Shown here: positions 47,231-56,541 of the stretch, piece after piece
Numbering within the stretch: the stretch's first letter is position 1
How the letters are laid out: the number at the start of each line of letters is the position of its first letter
NCBI RefSeq assembly: GCF_003334385.1
Contig: NZ_QOWN01000016.1
From: Escherichia coli
GTDB taxonomy: Bacteria; Pseudomonadota; Gammaproteobacteria; Enterobacterales; Enterobacteriaceae
Length of the DNA: 64,000 nucleotides
Direction: 5' to 3' (one strand)
Position numbers and translations under genes: made by a program
Notes under the pieces: generated by a model
The model's database searches: none
What the model was told of the DNA's origin: nothing
Seen by the model: only the letters and a program-made list of their open reading frames with translations

Positions 47231-48598
47231 TTAATAAAATAGCGTGATTGTGGCAATCATATTCACCACGAAACCGACTGCCATGGGGATCGCTGTCCGC
47301 TTCACCACCGCAAAAGGCGAAACGCCTGCAATTCCTGACGTAACGACCACCACCGCAGTAATCGGCGAAACCGCGCGCGCTAGCGTCGTGGCAAAATGCA
47401 TCGGCATAATCATTACAACCGCTGGTACATGTAGTCCGGCTGCGATATTCGGAATAAGACTGGCAAATGACATAAACGGCGCATTGCCAGAGCCCATCAC
47501 AATGGCACAAATGGCAATGACCAGCGCCATAATAATCATCACGCCAATACCGCCCAGACCAGAATGCTCCGCCCCCCTGATAACCGCATCGACAGTGCCA
47601 ATCGTCGTTAAGCCTTTCGCAAATATTTCACCCGCGACCACCAGCGTTACCACGTTGGCAAACTGCGTACCCATGCCGTCAAAAAACGCCTGCACATCGT
47701 CCATTGTTTCGCGCAAGTTATGCTTGCGGAAGAACTCAACAAACATCGTCACAGTCAAACTCAGTAACATCACCACCACCAGATGCAGTTCTGACTGCAT
47801 CAGCCCGACGTGGGCGAGGAACAGCGAGCCGAGCATCAGGATTAACGGCATCACAGGTAAAATGGCGTAATAGAGCGGCGGGACATTATCGAGAGCTTTT
47901 TGCTCTGCCTGTTCGTGATTGATATTTTTATCTTTTTTGTCAAAAGCGCGTTGCACGAAAAAGTGGGAGATCGCCACCGAGATAATGACGCAAGAGGCGA
48001 CCGGAAGCTGGTAGTGGAAGAAGTATGTGGCAATTTTCATTCCCGCTACCTGGGCAGCAAAAATGGAGTTCGTTTCCAGAATCCCCCACTCAATGGACAT
48101 CGTGGTTGCGATAACTGCCACCGCAGAGAGACGACTTACTCCCAGACTCACCAGCGTCGGAAATAAGGTGACCATCAGCAACATACCCAGACCGGAGGCG
48201 CTGGTAATAAACTGCGCCATGATTTGGCCGATGACGTAAGTTGCCGACAGAATAATATACGGCGAGCGAATGAGTTTTAACGGGCGGCTTAACAAGCTCA
48301 CCATCGCGCGACTGGCCCCTATGCGCTCCATGTAGCGGGCATAACCGCCCACCGCCATAATCGACAGCCCCAATCCGGCAATGCGGTTGGACAGCATGCG
48401 CAGGATTTCATTATAAATATCGACGATCAAGTAGCCGCTGCTTTTGGTGGGATCGAGTACACCACCGAACCCTAACCAGACACCGCACATCATCAGGAAG
48501 ATACCTGCGGCAGCCAGCACCACCTGAGGTTTGTAGTTTTTCAGGATCAAATAGCCCATCGTAATTAATACGATGACAGATATAATTATGCCGAACAT
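47231..48598 (-). CDS. dcuD: DcuC-family anaerobic C4-dicarboxylate transporter
   Basis: 455 aa from [23 protein letters not shown]; polytopic. Confidence 0.88.
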
Positions 48599-48977
48599 TG
48601 TTGAACTCCGTGTCAAAAGAAAACGGTCAATCCCATAAACGGCAGATTGAAAACAACGATGTTATATTTTTTGCAAGGCTATTTATGGTGCGGATGTCGT
48701 GTTTTTAATTGTAGGTGAGGTGATTTTTCATTAAAAAATATGCGCTTATGATTATTTTGTAAGAACACATTCATAATATTCATAATGCTCGTGAATAGTC
48801 TTATAAATAATTCAAACGGGATGTTTTTATCTGCGTTACATTAATTTTTCGCAATAGTTAATTATTCCGTTAATTATGGTAATGATGAGGCACAAAGAGA
48901 AAACCCTGCCATTTTCCCCTACTTTCAATCCTGTGATAGGATGTCACTGATGATGTTAATCACACTGACCTTACAGA

Positions 48978-49769
48978 ATGGGCCTTATGAACGCATTTGA
49001 TTCGCAAACCGAAGATTCTTCACCTGCAATTGGTCGCAACTTGCGTAGCCGCCCGCTGGCGCGTAAAAAACTCTCCGAAATGGTGGAAGAAGAGCTGGAA
49101 CAGATGATCCGCCGTCGTGAATTTGGCGAAGGTGAACAATTACCGTCTGAACGCGAACTGATGGCGTTCTTTAACGTCGGGCGTCCTTCGGTGCGTGAAG
49201 CGCTGGCAGCGTTAAAACGCAAAGGTCTGGTGCAAATAAACAACGGCGAACGCGCTCGCGTCTCGCGTCCTTCTGCGGACACTATCATCGGTGAGCTTTC
49301 CGGCATGGCGAAAGATTTCCTTTCTCATCCCGGTGGGATTGCCCATTTCGAACAATTACGTCTGTTCTTTGAATCCAGTCTGGTGCGCTATGCGGCTGAA
49401 CATGCCACCGATGAGCAAATCGATTTGCTGGCAAAAGCACTGGAAATCAACAGTCAGTCGCTGGATAACAACGCGGCATTCATTCGTTCAGACGTTGATT
49501 TCCACCGCGTGCTGGCGGAGATCCCCGGTAACCCAATCTTCATGGCGATCCACGTTGCCCTGCTCGACTGGCTTATTGCCGCACGCCCAACGGTTACCGA
49601 TCAGGCACTGCACGAACATAACAACGTTAGTTATCAACAGCATATTGCGATCGTTGATGCGATCCGCCGTCATGATCCTGACGAAGCCGATCGTGCGTTG
49701 CAATCGCATCTCAACAGCGTCTCTGCTACCTGGCACGCTTTCGGTCAGACCACCAACAAAAAGAAATAA
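48978..49769 (+). CDS. nanR: GntR/FadR-family repressor NanR
   Basis: 263 aa, N-terminal winged HTH ([22 protein letters not shown]). Confidence 0.93.
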
Positions 49770-49832
49770 TGCCACTTTAGTGAAGCAGATCGCATTATAA
49801 GCTTTCTGTATGGGGTGTTGCTTAATTGATCT

Positions 49833-49855
49833 GGTATAACAGGTATAAAGGTATA
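49833..49855 (+). promoter_or_regulatory. NanR operator: three tandem GGTATA repeats in the nanA promoter
   Basis: CTGGTATAACAGGTATAAAGGTATATCG, 35 bp upstream of nanA start. Confidence 0.75.
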
Positions 49856-49890
49856 TCGTTTATCAGACAAGCATCACTTCAGAGGTATTT

Positions 49891-50784
49891 ATGGCAACGA
49901 ATTTACGTGGCGTAATGGCTGCACTCCTGACTCCTTTTGACCAACAACAAGCACTGGATAAAGCGAGTCTGCGTCGCCTGGTTCAGTTCAATATTCAGCA
50001 GGGCATCGACGGTTTATACGTGGGTGGTTCGACCGGCGAGGCCTTTGTACAAAGCCTTTCCGAGCGTGAACAGGTACTGGAAATCGTCGCCGAAGAGGCG
50101 AAAGGTAAGATTAAACTCATCGCCCACGTCGGTTGCGTCAGCACCGCCGAAAGCCAACAACTTGCGGCATCGGCTAAACGTTATGGCTTCGATGCCGTCT
50201 CCGCCGTCACGCCGTTCTACTATCCTTTCAGCTTTGAAGAACACTGCGATCACTATCGGGCAATTATTGATTCGGCGGATGGTTTGCCGATGGTGGTGTA
50301 CAACATTCCAGCCCTGAGTGGGGTAAAACTGACCCTGGATCAGATCAACACACTTGTTACATTGCCTGGCGTAGGTGCGCTGAAACAGACCTCTGGCGAT
50401 CTCTATCAGATGGAGCAGATCCGTCGTGAACATCCTGATCTTGTGCTCTATAACGGTTACGACGAAATCTTCGCCTCTGGTCTGCTGGCGGGCGCTGATG
50501 GTGGTATCGGCAGTACCTACAACATCATGGGCTGGCGCTATCAGGGGATCGTTAAGGCGCTGAAAGAAGGCGATATCCAGACCGCGCAGAAACTGCAAAC
50601 TGAATGCAATAAAGTCATTGATTTACTGATCAAAACGGGCGTATTCCGCGGCCTGAAAACTGTCCTCCATTATATGGATGTCGTTTCTGTGCCGCTGTGC
50701 CGCAAACCGTTTGGACCGGTAGATGAAAAATATCTGCCAGAACTGAAGGCGCTGGCCCAGCAGTTGATGCAAGAGCGCGGGTGA
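49891..50784 (+). CDS. nanA: N-acetylneuraminate lyase
   Basis: 297 aa, DHDPS/NAL family. Confidence 0.95.
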
Positions 50785-50787
50785 GTT

Positions 50788-50823
50788 GTTTCCCCTCGCT
50801 CGCCCCTACCGGGTGAGGGGAAA
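50788..50823. repeat. GC-rich palindromic intergenic element, second copy
   Basis: TTTCCCCTCGCTCGCCCCTACCGGGTGAGGGGAAA between nanA and nanT; related to 32934-32977. Confidence 0.5.
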
Positions 50824-50892
50824 TAAACGCATCTGTACCCTACAATTTTCATACCAAAGCGTGTGGGCATCGCCCACCGCGGGAGACTCACA

Positions 50893-52383
50893 ATGAGTAC
50901 TACAACCCAGAATATCCCGTGGTATCGCCATCTCAACCGTGCACAATGGCGCGCATTTTCCGCTGCCTGGTTGGGATATCTGCTTGACGGTTTTGATTTC
51001 GTTTTAATCGCCCTGGTACTCACCGAAGTACAAGGTGAATTCGGGCTGACGACGGTGCAGGCGGCAAGTCTGATCTCTGCAGCCTTTATCTCTCGCTGGT
51101 TCGGCGGCCTGATGCTCGGCGCTATGGGTGACCGCTACGGGCGTCGTCTGGCAATGGTCACCAGCATCGTTCTCTTCTCGGCCGGGACGCTGGCCTGCGG
51201 CTTTGCGCCAGGCTACATCACCATGTTTATCGCTCGTCTGGTCATCGGCATGGGGATGGCGGGTGAATACGGTTCCAGCGCCACCTATGTCATTGAAAGC
51301 TGGCCAAAACATCTGCGTAACAAAGCCAGTGGTTTTTTGATTTCAGGCTTCTCTGTGGGGGCCGTCGTTGCCGCTCAGGTCTATAGCCTGGTGGTTCCGG
51401 TCTGGGGCTGGCGTGCGCTGTTCTTTATCGGCATTTTGCCAATCATCTTTGCTCTCTGGCTGCGTAAAAACATCCCGGAAGCGGAAGACTGGAAAGAGAA
51501 ACACGCAGGTAAAGCACCAGTACGCACAATGGTGGATATTCTCTACCGTGGTGAACATCGCATTGCCAATATCGTAATGACACTGGCGGCGGCTACTGCG
51601 CTGTGGTTCTGCTTCGCCGGTAACCTGCAAAATGCCGCGATCGTCGCTGTTCTTGGGCTGTTATGCGCCGCAATCTTTATCAGCTTTATGGTGCAGAGTA
51701 CAGGCAAACGCTGGCCAACGGGCGTAATGCTGATGGTGGTCGTGTTGTTTGCTTTCCTCTACTCATGGCCGATTCAGGCGCTGCTGCCAACGTATCTGAA
51801 AACCGATCTGGCTTATAACCCGCATACTGTAGCCAATGTGCTGTTCTTTAGTGGCTTTGGCGCGGCGGTGGGATGCTGCGTAGGTGGCTTCCTCGGTGAC
51901 TGGCTGGGAACCCGCAAAGCGTACGTTTGTAGCCTGCTGGCCTCGCAGCTGCTGATTATTCCGGTATTTGCGATTGGCGGCGCAAACGTCTGGGTGCTCG
52001 GTCTGTTACTGTTCTTCCAGCAAATGCTTGGACAAGGGATCGCCGGGATCTTACCAAAACTGATTGGCGGTTATTTCGATACCGACCAGCGTGCAGCGGG
52101 CCTGGGCTTTACCTACAACGTTGGCGCATTGGGCGGTGCACTGGCCCCAATCATCGGCGCGTTGATCGCTCAACGTCTGGATCTGGGTACTGCGCTGGCA
52201 TCGCTCTCGTTCAGTCTGACGTTCGTGGTGATCCTGCTGATTGGGCTGGATATGCCTTCTCGCGTTCAGCGTTGGTTGCGCCCGGAAGCGTTGCGTACTC
52301 ATGACGCTATCGACGGTAAACCATTCAGCGGTGCCGTGCCGTTTGGCAGCGCCAAAAACGATTTAGTCAAAACCAAAAGTTAA
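50893..52383 (+). CDS. nanT: sialic acid MFS transporter
   Basis: 496 aa from [15 protein letters not shown]; MFS with central insertion. Confidence 0.93.
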
Positions 52384-52430
52384 TCCTGTTGCCCGGTCTA
52401 TGTACCGGGCCTTTCGCTAAGGGAAGATGT

Positions 52431-53116
52431 ATGTCGTTACTTGCACAACTGGATCAAAAAATCGCTGCTAACGGTGGCCTGATTGTCTCCTGCCAGCCGG
52501 TTCCGGACAGCCCGCTCGATAAACCCGAAATCGTCGCCGCCATGGCATTAGCGGCAGAACAGGCGGGCGCGGTTGCCATTCGCATTGAAGGTGTGGCAAA
52601 TCTGCAAGCCACGCGTGCGGTGGTGAGCGTGCCGATTATTGGAATTGTGAAACGCGATCTGGAGGATTCTCCGGTACGCATCACGGCCTATATTGAAGAT
52701 GTTGATGCGCTGGCGCAGGCGGGCGCGGACATTATCGCCATTGACGGCACCGACCGCCCGCGTCCGGTGCCTGTTGAAACGCTGCTGGCACGTATTCACC
52801 ATCACGGTTTACTGGCGATGACCGACTGCTCAACGCCGGAAGACGGCCTGGCATGCCAAAAGCTGGGAGCCGAAATTATTGGCACTACGCTTTCTGGCTA
52901 TACCACGCCTGAAACGCCAGAAGAGCCGGATCTGGCGCTGGTGAAAACGTTGAGCGACGCCGGATGTCGGGTGATTGCCGAAGGGCGTTACAACACGCCT
53001 GCTCAGGCGGCGGATGCGATGCGCCACGGCGCGTGGGCGGTGACGGTCGGTTCTGCAATCACGCGTCTTGAGCACATTTGTCAGTGGTACAACACAGCGA
53101 TGAAAAAGGCGGTGCT

Positions 53117-53120
<4 letters not shown>
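52431..53120 (+). CDS. nanE: N-acetylmannosamine-6-phosphate 2-epimerase
   Basis: 229 aa from [23 protein letters not shown]. Confidence 0.93.
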
Positions 53121-54453
<1,333 letters not shown>

Positions 54454-54472
54454 AACTTAGTTCGTTTTAAAG

Positions 54473-54497
54473 ATTCTGCAGACACTGTCTGCAGAAT
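54473..54497. repeat. perfect palindrome ATTCTGCAGAC-ACT-GTCTGCAGAAT between convergent nanQ and yhcG stops
   Basis: 11-bp perfect arms around core CAGAC-N3-GTCTG; same family as three copies inside yhcG and one after gltD. Confidence 0.85.
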
Positions 54498-54512
54498 TCG
54501 AAACCGCTGAAA

Positions 54513-55640
54513 TTAACGGCGTCTATAGCCTTCCTCTAGCACCGCCTGTGTTCGAACGAGTTCATCTGCGAGTCGTTTCTCATCAGGTAGTTGCATCTTA
54601 TATTCGCTTGCCAGAACGGTGTTAGGCAAACCTGCCAGAGCATAATGCGCTTCTCCGGCTCCTTTCTCTGCACAGAGAACCAGACCGATGGGCGGATTTT
54701 CATCCGGTAGCGTCCAGTGCTCTTTGGCGTAGTTGAGATACATATTCATCTGTCCGGCATCGCTATAGCTGAATTTGCCCACTTTTAGATCGACGATTAG
54801 CAGGCAGCGTAAACGGCGGTGGAAAAACAGCAGATCGACACGAAACCAGTTGTCATCAATGCGTAACCTTCGCTGCCGACCAACAAAGGCAAAATCATCC
54901 CCAAGTTCCAGCATGAAATCCATCAGGTGGTTGATCAGCGCCTCCTCAAAATCGGATTCTGAATATTCATCTTTCAATTCCAGAAATTCGAGCACAAAGG
55001 GATCGCGTATCGCCTGTTGCGGAAGAATATGCGTCTCGGCAGGAGCGTGTTGTTGCAGCATGGCTGATTTGTCATGTGACAGTAGTGTCCGCTCATAAAA
55101 CTGGGTCGCAATTTGCCGCTCTAGCTGGCGAACAGACCAGCCACAGCGGAGCGTCTCTTTTTCATAAAAGCTGCGGGCGTCAGCGTTTTTAACGGAAAGT
55201 AAACGGACGTAGGTGGACCTGGGCAAGGGGAAAGATTTGGCAGACAGCGTCTGCCAAATCTTTGCCGATGGGAATTCTGCAGACGGTGTCTGCGGAATTC
55301 CCAATGGTGTTAATTCGCCAGACATTGTCTGGCGAATTTCAACATGTTGAAAAAAGAGGTAAAAAAGCCTCATTTGGCGTAAGTTTTTTGCAGAGAACCC
55401 ACGCTTATACCTTAGACATAAATCCTTTGATAGTCGCTTGATTAGCTGCGCACCATACGCAGCCCTGGCCTCGCCACCTTGTTCAAATTCGACAATTCGT
55501 CGGCCAATTTCCTGGTACGTCGCGGTCATTAACGCGTTAACGCTACGTACCGTTTCCGTCCGGGCGCTATCGACCAGATGAATAATACCGTCGTGGATTT
55601 GCTGGTAGCCTGCTGTGGTTCCTTCTGAGAGCGATTCCAT
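54513..55640 (-). CDS. yhcG: DUF1016 / PD-(D/E)XK nuclease-like protein
   Basis: 375 aa; C-terminal region carries a D...D-L-K arrangement (FRVDLLFF...LLIVDLKVGKF) compatible with a restriction-endonuclease fold; linker has three in-frame palindromic DNA units. Confidence 0.85.
   Translation of the reverse strand: MESLSEGTTAGYQQIHDGIIHLVDSARTETVRSVNALMTATYQEIGRRIVEFEQGGEARAAYGAQLIKRLSKDLCLRYKRGFSAKNLRQMRLFYLFFQHVEIRQTMSGELTPLGIPQTPSAEFPSAKIWQTLSAKSFPLPRSTYVRLLSVKNADARSFYEKETLRCGWSVRQLERQIATQFYERTLLSHDKSAMLQQHAPAETHILPQQAIRDPFVLEFLELKDEYSESDFEEALINHLMDFMLELGDDFAFVGRQRRLRIDDNWFRVDLLFFHRRLRCLLIVDLKVGKFSYSDAGQMNMYLNYAKEHWTLPDENPPIGLVLCAEKGAGEAHYALAGLPNTVLASEYKMQLPDEKRLADELVRTQAVLEEGYRRR
55231..55338. 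repeat. three tandem palindromes (CAGAC-N3-GTCTG cores) embedded in-frame in yhcG
   Basis: 55231-55263 AAAGATTTGGCAGAC-AGC-GTCTGCCAAATCTTT (15-bp perfect arms); 55270-55302 GGGAATTCTGCAGAC-GGT-GTCTGCGGAATTCCC (1 mismatch); 55312-55338 AATTCGCCAGAC-ATT-GTCTGGCGAATT (12-bp perfect arms); encode EIRQTMSGE / IPQTPSAEF / KIWQTLSAK. Confidence 0.85.
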
Positions 55641-55824
55641 TATCTGTCCCTTTATATGGAGCTAAGTTGAATAATGGAATGAGCTATACTCTGGGGGGTG
55701 AGCACTGAACAATTAAGAACAGCGTATTACATTTACTTTCCCCAAGATATGCGAAGAGCTTTCCTGAAACATTAACCGATCGTATAAAACGAATGCCTGA
55801 TAGTACTCCTGTCCGGCATTGTTA

Positions 55825-56541
55825 TCACAAGTAGACTACGCTTATCACAGCTTTCCCATCAAGTTCGATTTTTTCTGAACCGCCTAAATCATTCGCGATA
55901 GATGCGCTCACCTGAAGCGGTATAATGGCGTTCGTTACAGGAGTTGGGGTTGTTTCACCTGGTTTTACAAAGGTGTAATAATAGCTTTGATCGACTGCAA
56001 GCGGATAAGCGGTGAGCGTTTGCCATGCTCTTTTTTGCCCTGTTATGACGGCATCTGCACCTGCTATTGATACAGCTAACGTCTGGCTACCATTGCTGGC
56101 ACTAATGTTGTTGCTATCAATTAACACGGCATAACTACCGATATTTTTATTATCTTTTGTTTTCCCTAAGCCGAATAAGCGCGTTGTCTGGCTAATATAA
56201 CCTCCGCCATTTAAGGTATATTTTACACCACTCTGACCCCCACTATCTTTTCCGGTGGTCATACTATCCATTCGTGTATCACGAGCGGTAATCGCAATGC
56301 TGGTAGCGGATTCGCAAGTTATAGTCATATTAATATTACGTGTTCCAATCTGTGTGTAGTGCTGCGTTGAAAGTCTATTGACTGAATGACTACCGAAGTT
56401 AACAACTCCGCCGTTGCTTAGTATTGGAGTACAAGCTGCAGCTTCCAGAGTCACCTTAACGTCAATTGATACTCTATCAGCGGCTTGCGCTGACATGGCA
56501 AAAAAGGCACTTCCGGCAATCAGTAATTTTACATTGTTCAT
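55825..56541 (-). CDS. yhcF: DUF1120 fimbrial-like periplasmic protein
   Basis: 238 aa, signal peptide; clear paralogue of GltF (ACTPILSNGGVVNFGSH vs ACTPVVTGGGIVDYGKH; C-terminal EKIELDGKAVISVVYL vs ETIKLDGNVTISVQYL). Confidence 0.85.
   Translation of the reverse strand: MNNVKLLIAGSAFFAMSAQAADRVSIDVKVTLEAAACTPILSNGGVVNFGSHSVNRLSTQHYTQIGTRNINMTITCESATSIAITARDTRMDSMTTGKDSGGQSGVKYTLNGGGYISQTTRLFGLGKTKDNKNIGSYAVLIDSNNISASNGSQTLAVSIAGADAVITGQKRAWQTLTAYPLAVDQSYYYTFVKPGETTPTPVTNAIIPLQVSASIANDLGGSEKIELDGKAVISVVYL

Follow-up and report, generated by a model that had tools for sequence, protein, structure and literature searches.

The nan operon, which matters in gut colonisation, allows Escherichia coli and related bacteria to use host sialic acid as a food source. 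On the + strand of the 64,000-nucleotide stretch of E. coli DNA analysed here (the window), nanATEK-nanQ, the E. coli sialic-acid catabolic operon, carries a short GC-rich hairpin in the spacer between nanT and nanE. What kind of element is this hairpin, and what might it do to the nan message?

Position and folding of the hairpin

The genes of the locus and the parts of the nanT-nanE junction are listed in Table 1. The spacer between the two genes shows no difference between the window and E. coli K-12 MG1655. The nanE start was placed at the ATG at 52431 (not 52432), in frame with the NanE protein. A longer nanE beginning at TTG 52389, as proposed by a mechanical open reading frame call, was rejected: the RefSeq start is the ATG, and the longer version was discarded because loop indels of 1-2 nt, found among strains and species, break its frame.

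Table 1. Features of the nan locus (window coordinates, except where MG1655 is named) and the evidence for each
Feature	Position	Strand	Evidence or remark
nanR	48978-49769	+	NCBIfam equivalog-level match; RefSeq annotation of same DNA
nanA	49891-50784	+	NCBIfam equivalog-level match; RefSeq annotation of same DNA
nanT (sialic acid:H+ symporter)	50893-52383	+	NCBIfam NF003024, 948 bits; RefSeq, identical DNA
nanT stop TAA	52381-52383	+	
nanT stop-to-stem spacer UCCUGUU, 7 nt	52384-52390	+	
Hairpin 5' arm GCCCGGU (DNA GCCCGGT)	52391-52397	+	inverted-repeat finder, fold
Hairpin loop CUAUGU, 6 nt	52398-52403	+	inverted-repeat finder, fold
Hairpin 3' arm ACCGGGC	52404-52410	+	inverted-repeat finder, fold, alignment
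nanT 3' terminus zone	52411-52418, dominant 52415	+	Term-seq, coordinates converted
nanE Shine-Dalgarno (SD) region AAGGGAAG	52419-52426	+	AGG/GAGG core kept in all junctions
nanE (ManNAc-6-P 2-epimerase)	52431-53120	+	NCBIfam NF002231, 340 bits; RefSeq annotation
nanK	53117-53992	+	NCBIfam equivalog-level match; RefSeq annotation of same DNA
nanQ (yhcH)	53989-54453	+	NCBIfam equivalog-level match; RefSeq annotation of same DNA
nanA terminus	MG1655 3372582 (range 3372579-3372589)	-	signal 0.94; alternative primary in TU
nanT terminus	MG1655 3371052 (range 3371049-3371056)	-	signal 0.61; alternative primary in TU
nanQ terminus	MG1655 3368963 (range 3368962-3368970)	-	signal 0.77; primary

The sequence GCCCGGTCTATGTACCGGGC was located at 52391-52410 in the nanT-nanE spacer, where the first-pass annotation of the window had placed a hairpin, and an inverted-repeat finder returned a perfect repeat there, with two 7-nt arms that are 100% complementary and lie 6 nt apart. 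The stem, originally given as 6 bp, had to be extended to 7 bp (six G-C pairs and a closing U-A pair). Its placement just past the nanT stop and 20 nt before the nanE start agrees with measurement: 7 nt separate the nanT stop from the stem, and 20 nt separate the stem from the nanE ATG.

Folding of the spacer (47-48 nt) gave -17.6 kcal/mol, with z = -2.1 relative to shuffled sequences; the main hairpin by itself contributes a fold of -12.5 kcal/mol, and its pair probabilities are 0.88-1.0 in a 160-nt context. Perfect GC-rich 7-bp hairpins are expected by chance about 2.3 times per 64 kb, and 8 overlapping hits (~6 distinct) were seen in the window. A chance hairpin within one given 47-nt spacer is thus unlikely, yet this improbability is not decisive on its own. 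A weak 5-bp helix (CUUUC/GGAAG; 52411-52415 with 52422-52426) stacks on the main hairpin and overlaps the nanE SD; it occurs in Escherichia only and is missing from the consensus fold.

Conservation and covariation across Enterobacteriaceae

Orthologous nanT-nanE junctions came from three sources: species-representative genomes, contigs with a gene for a NanE homologue, and E. coli strains. The hairpin was present in seven genera (Escherichia, Salmonella, Citrobacter, Klebsiella, Raoultella, Kluyvera and Pseudocitrobacter), with Escherichia represented by E. coli, E. albertii, E. whittamii and the cryptic clades, and Klebsiella by K. quasipneumoniae. It is shortened to 5 bp in Tenebrionibacter, and a degenerate copy was found in one Klebsiella-like MAG.

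Mean column identity was ~0.90 in the stem against ~0.6 in the neighbouring columns. The stem equals the SD and the start codon in conservation, in surroundings (loop, stop-to-stem spacer and stem-to-SD spacer) that are largely scrambled. Loop sequence and loop length (3-6 nt) differ between species. Klebsiella and Raoultella have a stop-to-stem spacer of ~5-6 nt, against ~7 nt in Escherichia, Citrobacter, Kluyvera and Pseudocitrobacter.

Standard pairs filled 96.3% of the stem cells in an alignment of 27 sequences, compared with 21-48% when the 3' arm was slid by 1-3 columns. Compensatory double changes were observed in three of the seven stem pairs of this alignment, and a covariation score as high as the observed one was reached in none of 500 column shuffles; a set of 21 sequences gave the same picture. 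All 27 orthologous junctions keep the central CCCG of the 5' arm unchanged, and covariation is seen in the outer and the inner pairs. At the innermost pair, E. coli, E. albertii, C. sedlakii and Salmonella have U-A, and C-G is found in the remaining clades of Escherichia and in most Citrobacter and Klebsiella; C. braakii shows the U·G intermediate. At the outermost pair, E. coli E69 and C. sedlakii have A-U, E. albertii and K. quasipneumoniae have G·U, and pair 6 can be followed stepwise from G-C through G·U (Kluyvera cryocrescens) to A-U (K. intermedia). Such changes in the stem arose repeatedly and independently. Two variants were seen within E. coli, a common loop SNP (A52400C) and C52405T, which converts a G-C pair to G·U in some strains.

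Read on the + strand, all six single-site intermediates found in intact hairpins are wobbles (G·U or U·G), which would become C·A mismatches on the other strand; the structured molecule is therefore the mRNA. Because it is conserved with covariation, the hairpin is more than a chance fold: it is a selectively maintained helix of the sense RNA. It was missing from Leclercia and two other Enterobacteriaceae contigs, in which the nanT-nanE spacers are 25, 9 and 4 nt long. Since such hairpin-free lineages exist, the element is dispensable and is a feature of one enterobacterial group.

Two further observations were made on individual junctions. In Salmonella, a homopolymeric C run abuts the hairpin on the 5' side and runs into its 5' arm (L030:1956-1968 versus L031:941-956); the run has 8 C in one assembly and 11 C in the other, which reflects either a slippage-prone tract or an assembly difference. 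On a K. aerogenes-type contig (L033), a lone nanE lies directly after sspB and its intrinsic terminator; nanA, nanT, nanK and nanQ are missing from this locus, gltD follows on the opposite strand, and the nan locus looks like a remnant or a rearrangement.

Copy number and comparison with element families

With up to 3 mismatches allowed, the hairpin is single-copy in the window, and with a 90-nt query 5410 E. coli genomes gave one nanT-nanE site each. A second copy of the junction was seen on a plasmid of one E. coli genome, and the junction was unmatched in 16 of 5426 complete E. coli genomes.

With a permissive threshold, Rfam models matched nowhere in the spacer and gave two chance-level hits (E ~8) elsewhere in 48500-56500, and the MG1655 record has no RNA or regulatory feature annotated at the nanT-nanE spacer. 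Membership of the REP/BIME class was rejected: the element is 20 nt long and not a ~35-nt imperfect palindrome, it does not contain the REP consensus, and it is single-copy, on which ground membership of a repeat family was likewise rejected. An operator that sequesters the SD was also rejected, the stem ending 8 nt before the SD and the conserved helix containing neither SD nor AUG. Lacking their testable defining features, the hairpin is therefore not assigned to REP elements, intrinsic terminators (see below), Rfam families or SD-sequestering operators.

Terminator features

The hairpin has a GC-rich stem-loop within the ~5-12-bp range of intrinsic terminators (7 bp, -12.5 kcal/mol), and it is not followed by a conserved U-rich tract (~≥5 U of 8). 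The tail after the stem in the window, CUUUCGCU, contains 4 U of 8. Escherichia tails (CUUUCGCU, CUUUUGCU and CUUUUGUU) contain 4-6 U of 8, and those outside Escherichia 1-4 U of 8, with 1-3 in Citrobacter, Salmonella, Kluyvera and Raoultella. No A-tract was found 5' of the hairpin.

A scan for consensus terminators and promoters did not flag the hairpin. We also computed a rough version of the d'Aubenton-Carafa-type discriminant (positive control: the neighbouring sspB terminator), which was -31 in the window, negative in 27/27 sequences (-6 to -69, and -6 to -63 among those with the hairpin) and +7.5 for the sspB terminator. With the U-tract weak in Escherichia and absent elsewhere, the hairpin is not a canonical intrinsic terminator. 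The original statement that it has no U-tract and is unlikely to be a terminator was broadly right, with the qualification that 4 of the 8 tail positions in the window are U; the scan and the discriminant were both negative.

RNA 3' ends mapped in the nan operon

Published termini were taken from the TRS re-analysis of the Dar & Sorek Term-seq data for E. coli in LB (PMC10687069, Suppl. Data 2); file order and column format were used to attribute the row to the Dar & Sorek sheet. Coordinates were converted by w = 3423467 - g (MG1655 nanE ATG 3371036, nanT stop 3371084), with the sspB terminator as a check of the conversion.

For the nanT terminus, the adjusted p-values of the three replicates are 2.7e-9, 1 and 2.4e-8, two of them significant; among the accessible datasets it is listed in one, from LB cells uninduced for nan. 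The RNA that it defines terminates ...ACCGGGCCUUUC-3', 5 nt past the stem, and the peak is 8 nt wide, covering 1-8 nt past the stem. The nanA terminus, significant in 3/3 replicates, corresponds to window position 50885, 8 nt past a hairpin at 50863-50877 and 8 nt before the nanT ATG. The nanQ terminus corresponds to 54504, 7 nt past an 11-bp hairpin. None of the three nan hairpins at these mapped termini (nanA, nanT, nanQ) has a U-tract. The 3' end mapped after the nanT-nanE hairpin stops 3 nt short of the nanE SD, and the one at the nanA-nanT junction falls within the nanT SD.

The nanT terminus is absent from the Term-seq tables of Adams et al., in which the nan entry is a nanA-internal end only, and the SMRT-Cappable-seq tables hold no nan entries. 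The nanA-internal end (Adams et al. 2021) is an ORF-internal 3' end at window position 49936 (MG1655 3373531, - strand), ~45 nt into nanA, and was classed there as not Rho-dependent; it could be a premature termination or a processing site near the operon start.

A processing or stability element that closes off a nanA-nanT RNA should leave a 3' end shortly past the stem, as mapped here at 5 nt. The first-pass suggestion of such an element is partly supported, by a conserved sense-RNA structure with a 3' terminus 5 nt downstream of it; processing with trimming could make this end, and so could weak termination.

Hairpins at the nanA-nanT junction and the nanQ end

Within the nanA-nanT spacer (50785-50892), 15 nt ahead of the nanT ATG, lies another GC hairpin, GTGGGC-AUC-GCCCAC (50863-50877). 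The nanA terminus, whose signal of 0.94 is stronger than that of the nanT terminus, falls inside the nanT SD, GGGAGA. This hairpin and the following CGCGGGAGACUCAC are kept in Escherichia, Kluyvera, Pseudocitrobacter, Tenebrionibacter, Raoultella and Leclercia, and the changes in it are compensatory and G·U. Directly past the nanA stop lies a 9-bp helix with a 17-nt loop, UUUCCCCUC/GAGGGGAAA (50789-50797/50815-50823), which is conserved within Escherichia.

The nanA-nanT spacers of Citrobacter, Salmonella and Klebsiella (loci L008-L010, L012, L014, L015, L030 and L032) hold palindromes that we read as REP-like, e.g. TAGGCCGGATAAGGCG...GCCGCCATCCGGCA, so that in those genera the junction is filled by another kind of stable hairpin. 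In Pseudocitrobacter (L011, L013, L016) the spacer measures 175-403 nt and contains 1-4 tandem repeats of ~80 nt built on CCCTCTCCC...GGGAGAGGG palindromes, by which it is expanded to as much as 403 nt. At the other end of the operon, a perfect 11-bp hairpin (54473-54497) lies between the convergent nanQ and yhcG, with no U-tract on the nan strand and a discriminant of -44.5.

Proposed role and alternative explanations

The reading that we favour, with a probability of about 0.5, is that the hairpin is a U-tract-less stem-loop that blocks 3'-5' exonucleases, defines the end of a sub-operonic nanA-nanT RNA and lowers nanE-nanK-nanQ relative to nanA-nanT. The nan mRNA would be cut endonucleolytically in the nanE ribosome-binding region, or would have ended within nanE-nanK-nanQ; 3'-to-5' exonucleases would then trim such RNA back to the base of the hairpin. 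A stable RNA with nanA and nanT would remain, and the detached or missing distal part would be lost. By sealing the nanA-nanT RNA in this manner, the hairpin would cause the steady-state nanA-nanT message (lyase, transporter) to exceed the nanE-nanK-nanQ message. What we infer in this proposal is that exonucleases are blocked, how the 3' end arises, and that expression ratios are affected. Any barrier to distal expression is probably modest at most, because an evolution experiment that selected for more NanK reported no mutation in the nanT-nanE spacer (bioRxiv 10.64898/2026.02.02.703383), and because no rut-like skew of C over G was found 3' of the hairpin (C = 25 and G = 26 in 100 nt, unremarkable within the operon).

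The nearest competitor would be a weak intrinsic terminator or attenuator at which some RNA polymerases stop after nanT, lowering transcription of nanE-nanK-nanQ. The GC-rich stem-loop with its folding energy, the 4-6 U of 8 in the Escherichia tails and a mapped 3' end that lies inside the tail make this plausible within Escherichia. Against it, the stem is kept in genera whose tails hold 1-3 U of 8 (Citrobacter, Salmonella, Kluyvera and Raoultella), the discriminant is negative where that of sspB is positive, the consensus scan is negative and an upstream A-tract is lacking. The 3' ends of intrinsic terminators usually lie 7-9 nt past the stem, and the nanT end, at 5 nt, is nearer. Weak termination would leave the conservation of the stem without the tail unexplained, and we regard it as unlikely. 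A role in nanE translation (delimiting the ribosome-binding site on its 5' side, stabilising a processed nanEKQ RNA from its 5' end, or uncoupling nanE initiation from ribosomes that terminate on nanT) would account for a stem-to-ATG distance that is near-constant (20-21 nt; 24 in Klebsiella and Raoultella) across intervening sequence that has almost fully diverged. From the known ribosome footprint, a ribosome terminating 7 nt before the stem should have to melt the hairpin, and in the hairpin-free lineages nanT and nanE lie 4-25 nt apart, as if the two arrangements were alternatives. The predicted accessibility of the nanE SD-AUG region is nevertheless 0.42 with the hairpin and 0.40-0.43 with either arm mutated or the hairpin deleted; the hairpin excludes the SD and the AUG, the helix that does involve the SD is confined to Escherichia, the constant spacing may simply mean that indels are absent between lineages this closely related, and what was mapped is a 3' rather than a 5' end. 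A translational function thus appears decidedly unlikely.

Two explanations would deny the RNA any function, and we consider both very improbable. If the element were a DNA-level palindrome (a protein-binding site, a recombination site or a REP-like relic), its perfect symmetry, its invariant CCCGG/CCGGG core and the REP-like elements in the adjacent nanA-nanT spacer of other genera would be explained; an arm spacing that varies from 3 to 6 nt is ill-suited to a dimeric binding site, the element is single-copy in the window and per E. coli genome, its 20 nt lack the REP consensus, and the changes are compensatory, with intermediates that are in every case G·U in the sense strand and that DNA or the complementary strand would present as C·A mismatches. 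That a neutral, functionless hairpin has been kept by chance or mutation bias is suggested by the frequency of short GC hairpins (about two per 64 kb by chance) and by the Enterobacteriaceae that do without one. Such a hairpin would hardly be conserved like an SD or a start codon amid a scrambled spacer, covary beyond all 500 shuffles and all slid controls, or coincide with a mapped RNA 3' end.

A reading of the operon as a whole, which we put forward as speculation and think improbable, is that the nan operon may be a segmented message, in which conserved GC hairpins shortly upstream of the next ribosome-binding site at both internal junctions seal the proximal part, a ribosome or an sRNA (Spot 42 at nanT) on the next ribosome-binding site gates cutting or termination, initiation on each cistron decides whether the distal part survives, and the 20-21 nt spacing is itself functional.

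Significance

Cytoplasmic build-up of Neu5Ac has been reported to be toxic (bioRxiv 10.64898/2026.02.02.703383), which makes the levels of lyase and transporter relative to those of epimerase and kinase a reasonable question. A conserved RNA element between nanT and nanE with a mapped 3' end offers an easily mutated handle on these expression ratios. It also gives a phylogenetically supported case to the class of U-less protective stem-loops, for which knowledge has come mostly from genome-wide statistics and less from single conserved instances. No general principle is changed, and the result should be useful to workers on nan regulation and unsurprising to specialists. The hairpin is a known kind of element that had not been described before at the nanT-nanE junction: within the accessible literature, our search found no paper that discusses it and no half-life, Northern or mutant results for it, and Vimr's 2013 review mentions no hairpin, terminator or polarity.

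Comparison with known systems

Canonical Rho-independent terminators share with the hairpin a GC-rich stem-loop of similar size and energy. The hairpin differs from them in having neither a conserved U-tract nor an A-tract, in its negative discriminant, and in that the genes 3' of it belong to the same operon and pathway.

REP (BIME) elements, reportedly recognised as intercistronic stabilisers by Newbury, Higgins and co-workers in 1987 (e.g. at malE-malF), raise the mRNA of upstream genes relative to that of downstream genes. The nanT-nanE element resembles the malE-malF type in being a stable intercistronic hairpin with no terminator function, and is unlike it in its 20-nt length, 7-bp stem, lack of the REP consensus and single copy.

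The gal operon is said to form 3' termini at its cistron ends (mE1/mT1/mK1; Lim, Adhya and co-workers), and the origin of each, by Rho termination, RNase E cleavage or exonuclease trimming, has reportedly been worked out experimentally. The nan operon can be likened to it in that sub-operonic mRNAs end at stem-loops near cistron junctions, with natural polarity. The two differ in that the origins of the gal ends are experimentally resolved; for the nan end, trimming and weak termination are both candidates. Both operons are targets of the sRNA Spot 42, nanT being listed as such (PMC12612679).

The hairpin also fits the class of stem-loops of Dar & Sorek 2018 (PMC6061677), which are stable and U-poor, mark precise steady-state 3' ends in E. 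coli and, on the evidence of that study, protect RNA from PNPase and RNase II. That class consists mainly of the ends of Rho-dependent transcripts, whereas the nanT end is intra-operonic, 16 nt before the nanE ATG. The hairpin also differs in the absence of a C>G skew downstream, an enrichment that is a mild statistical tendency of the class and not a strict requirement (PMC6061677). What the two share is a stable stem-loop, few U residues after it and a sharply defined Term-seq 3' end right past the stem (one dataset, 2/3 replicates), and the nanT terminus is itself drawn from that study's own data, as re-analysed in PMC10687069.
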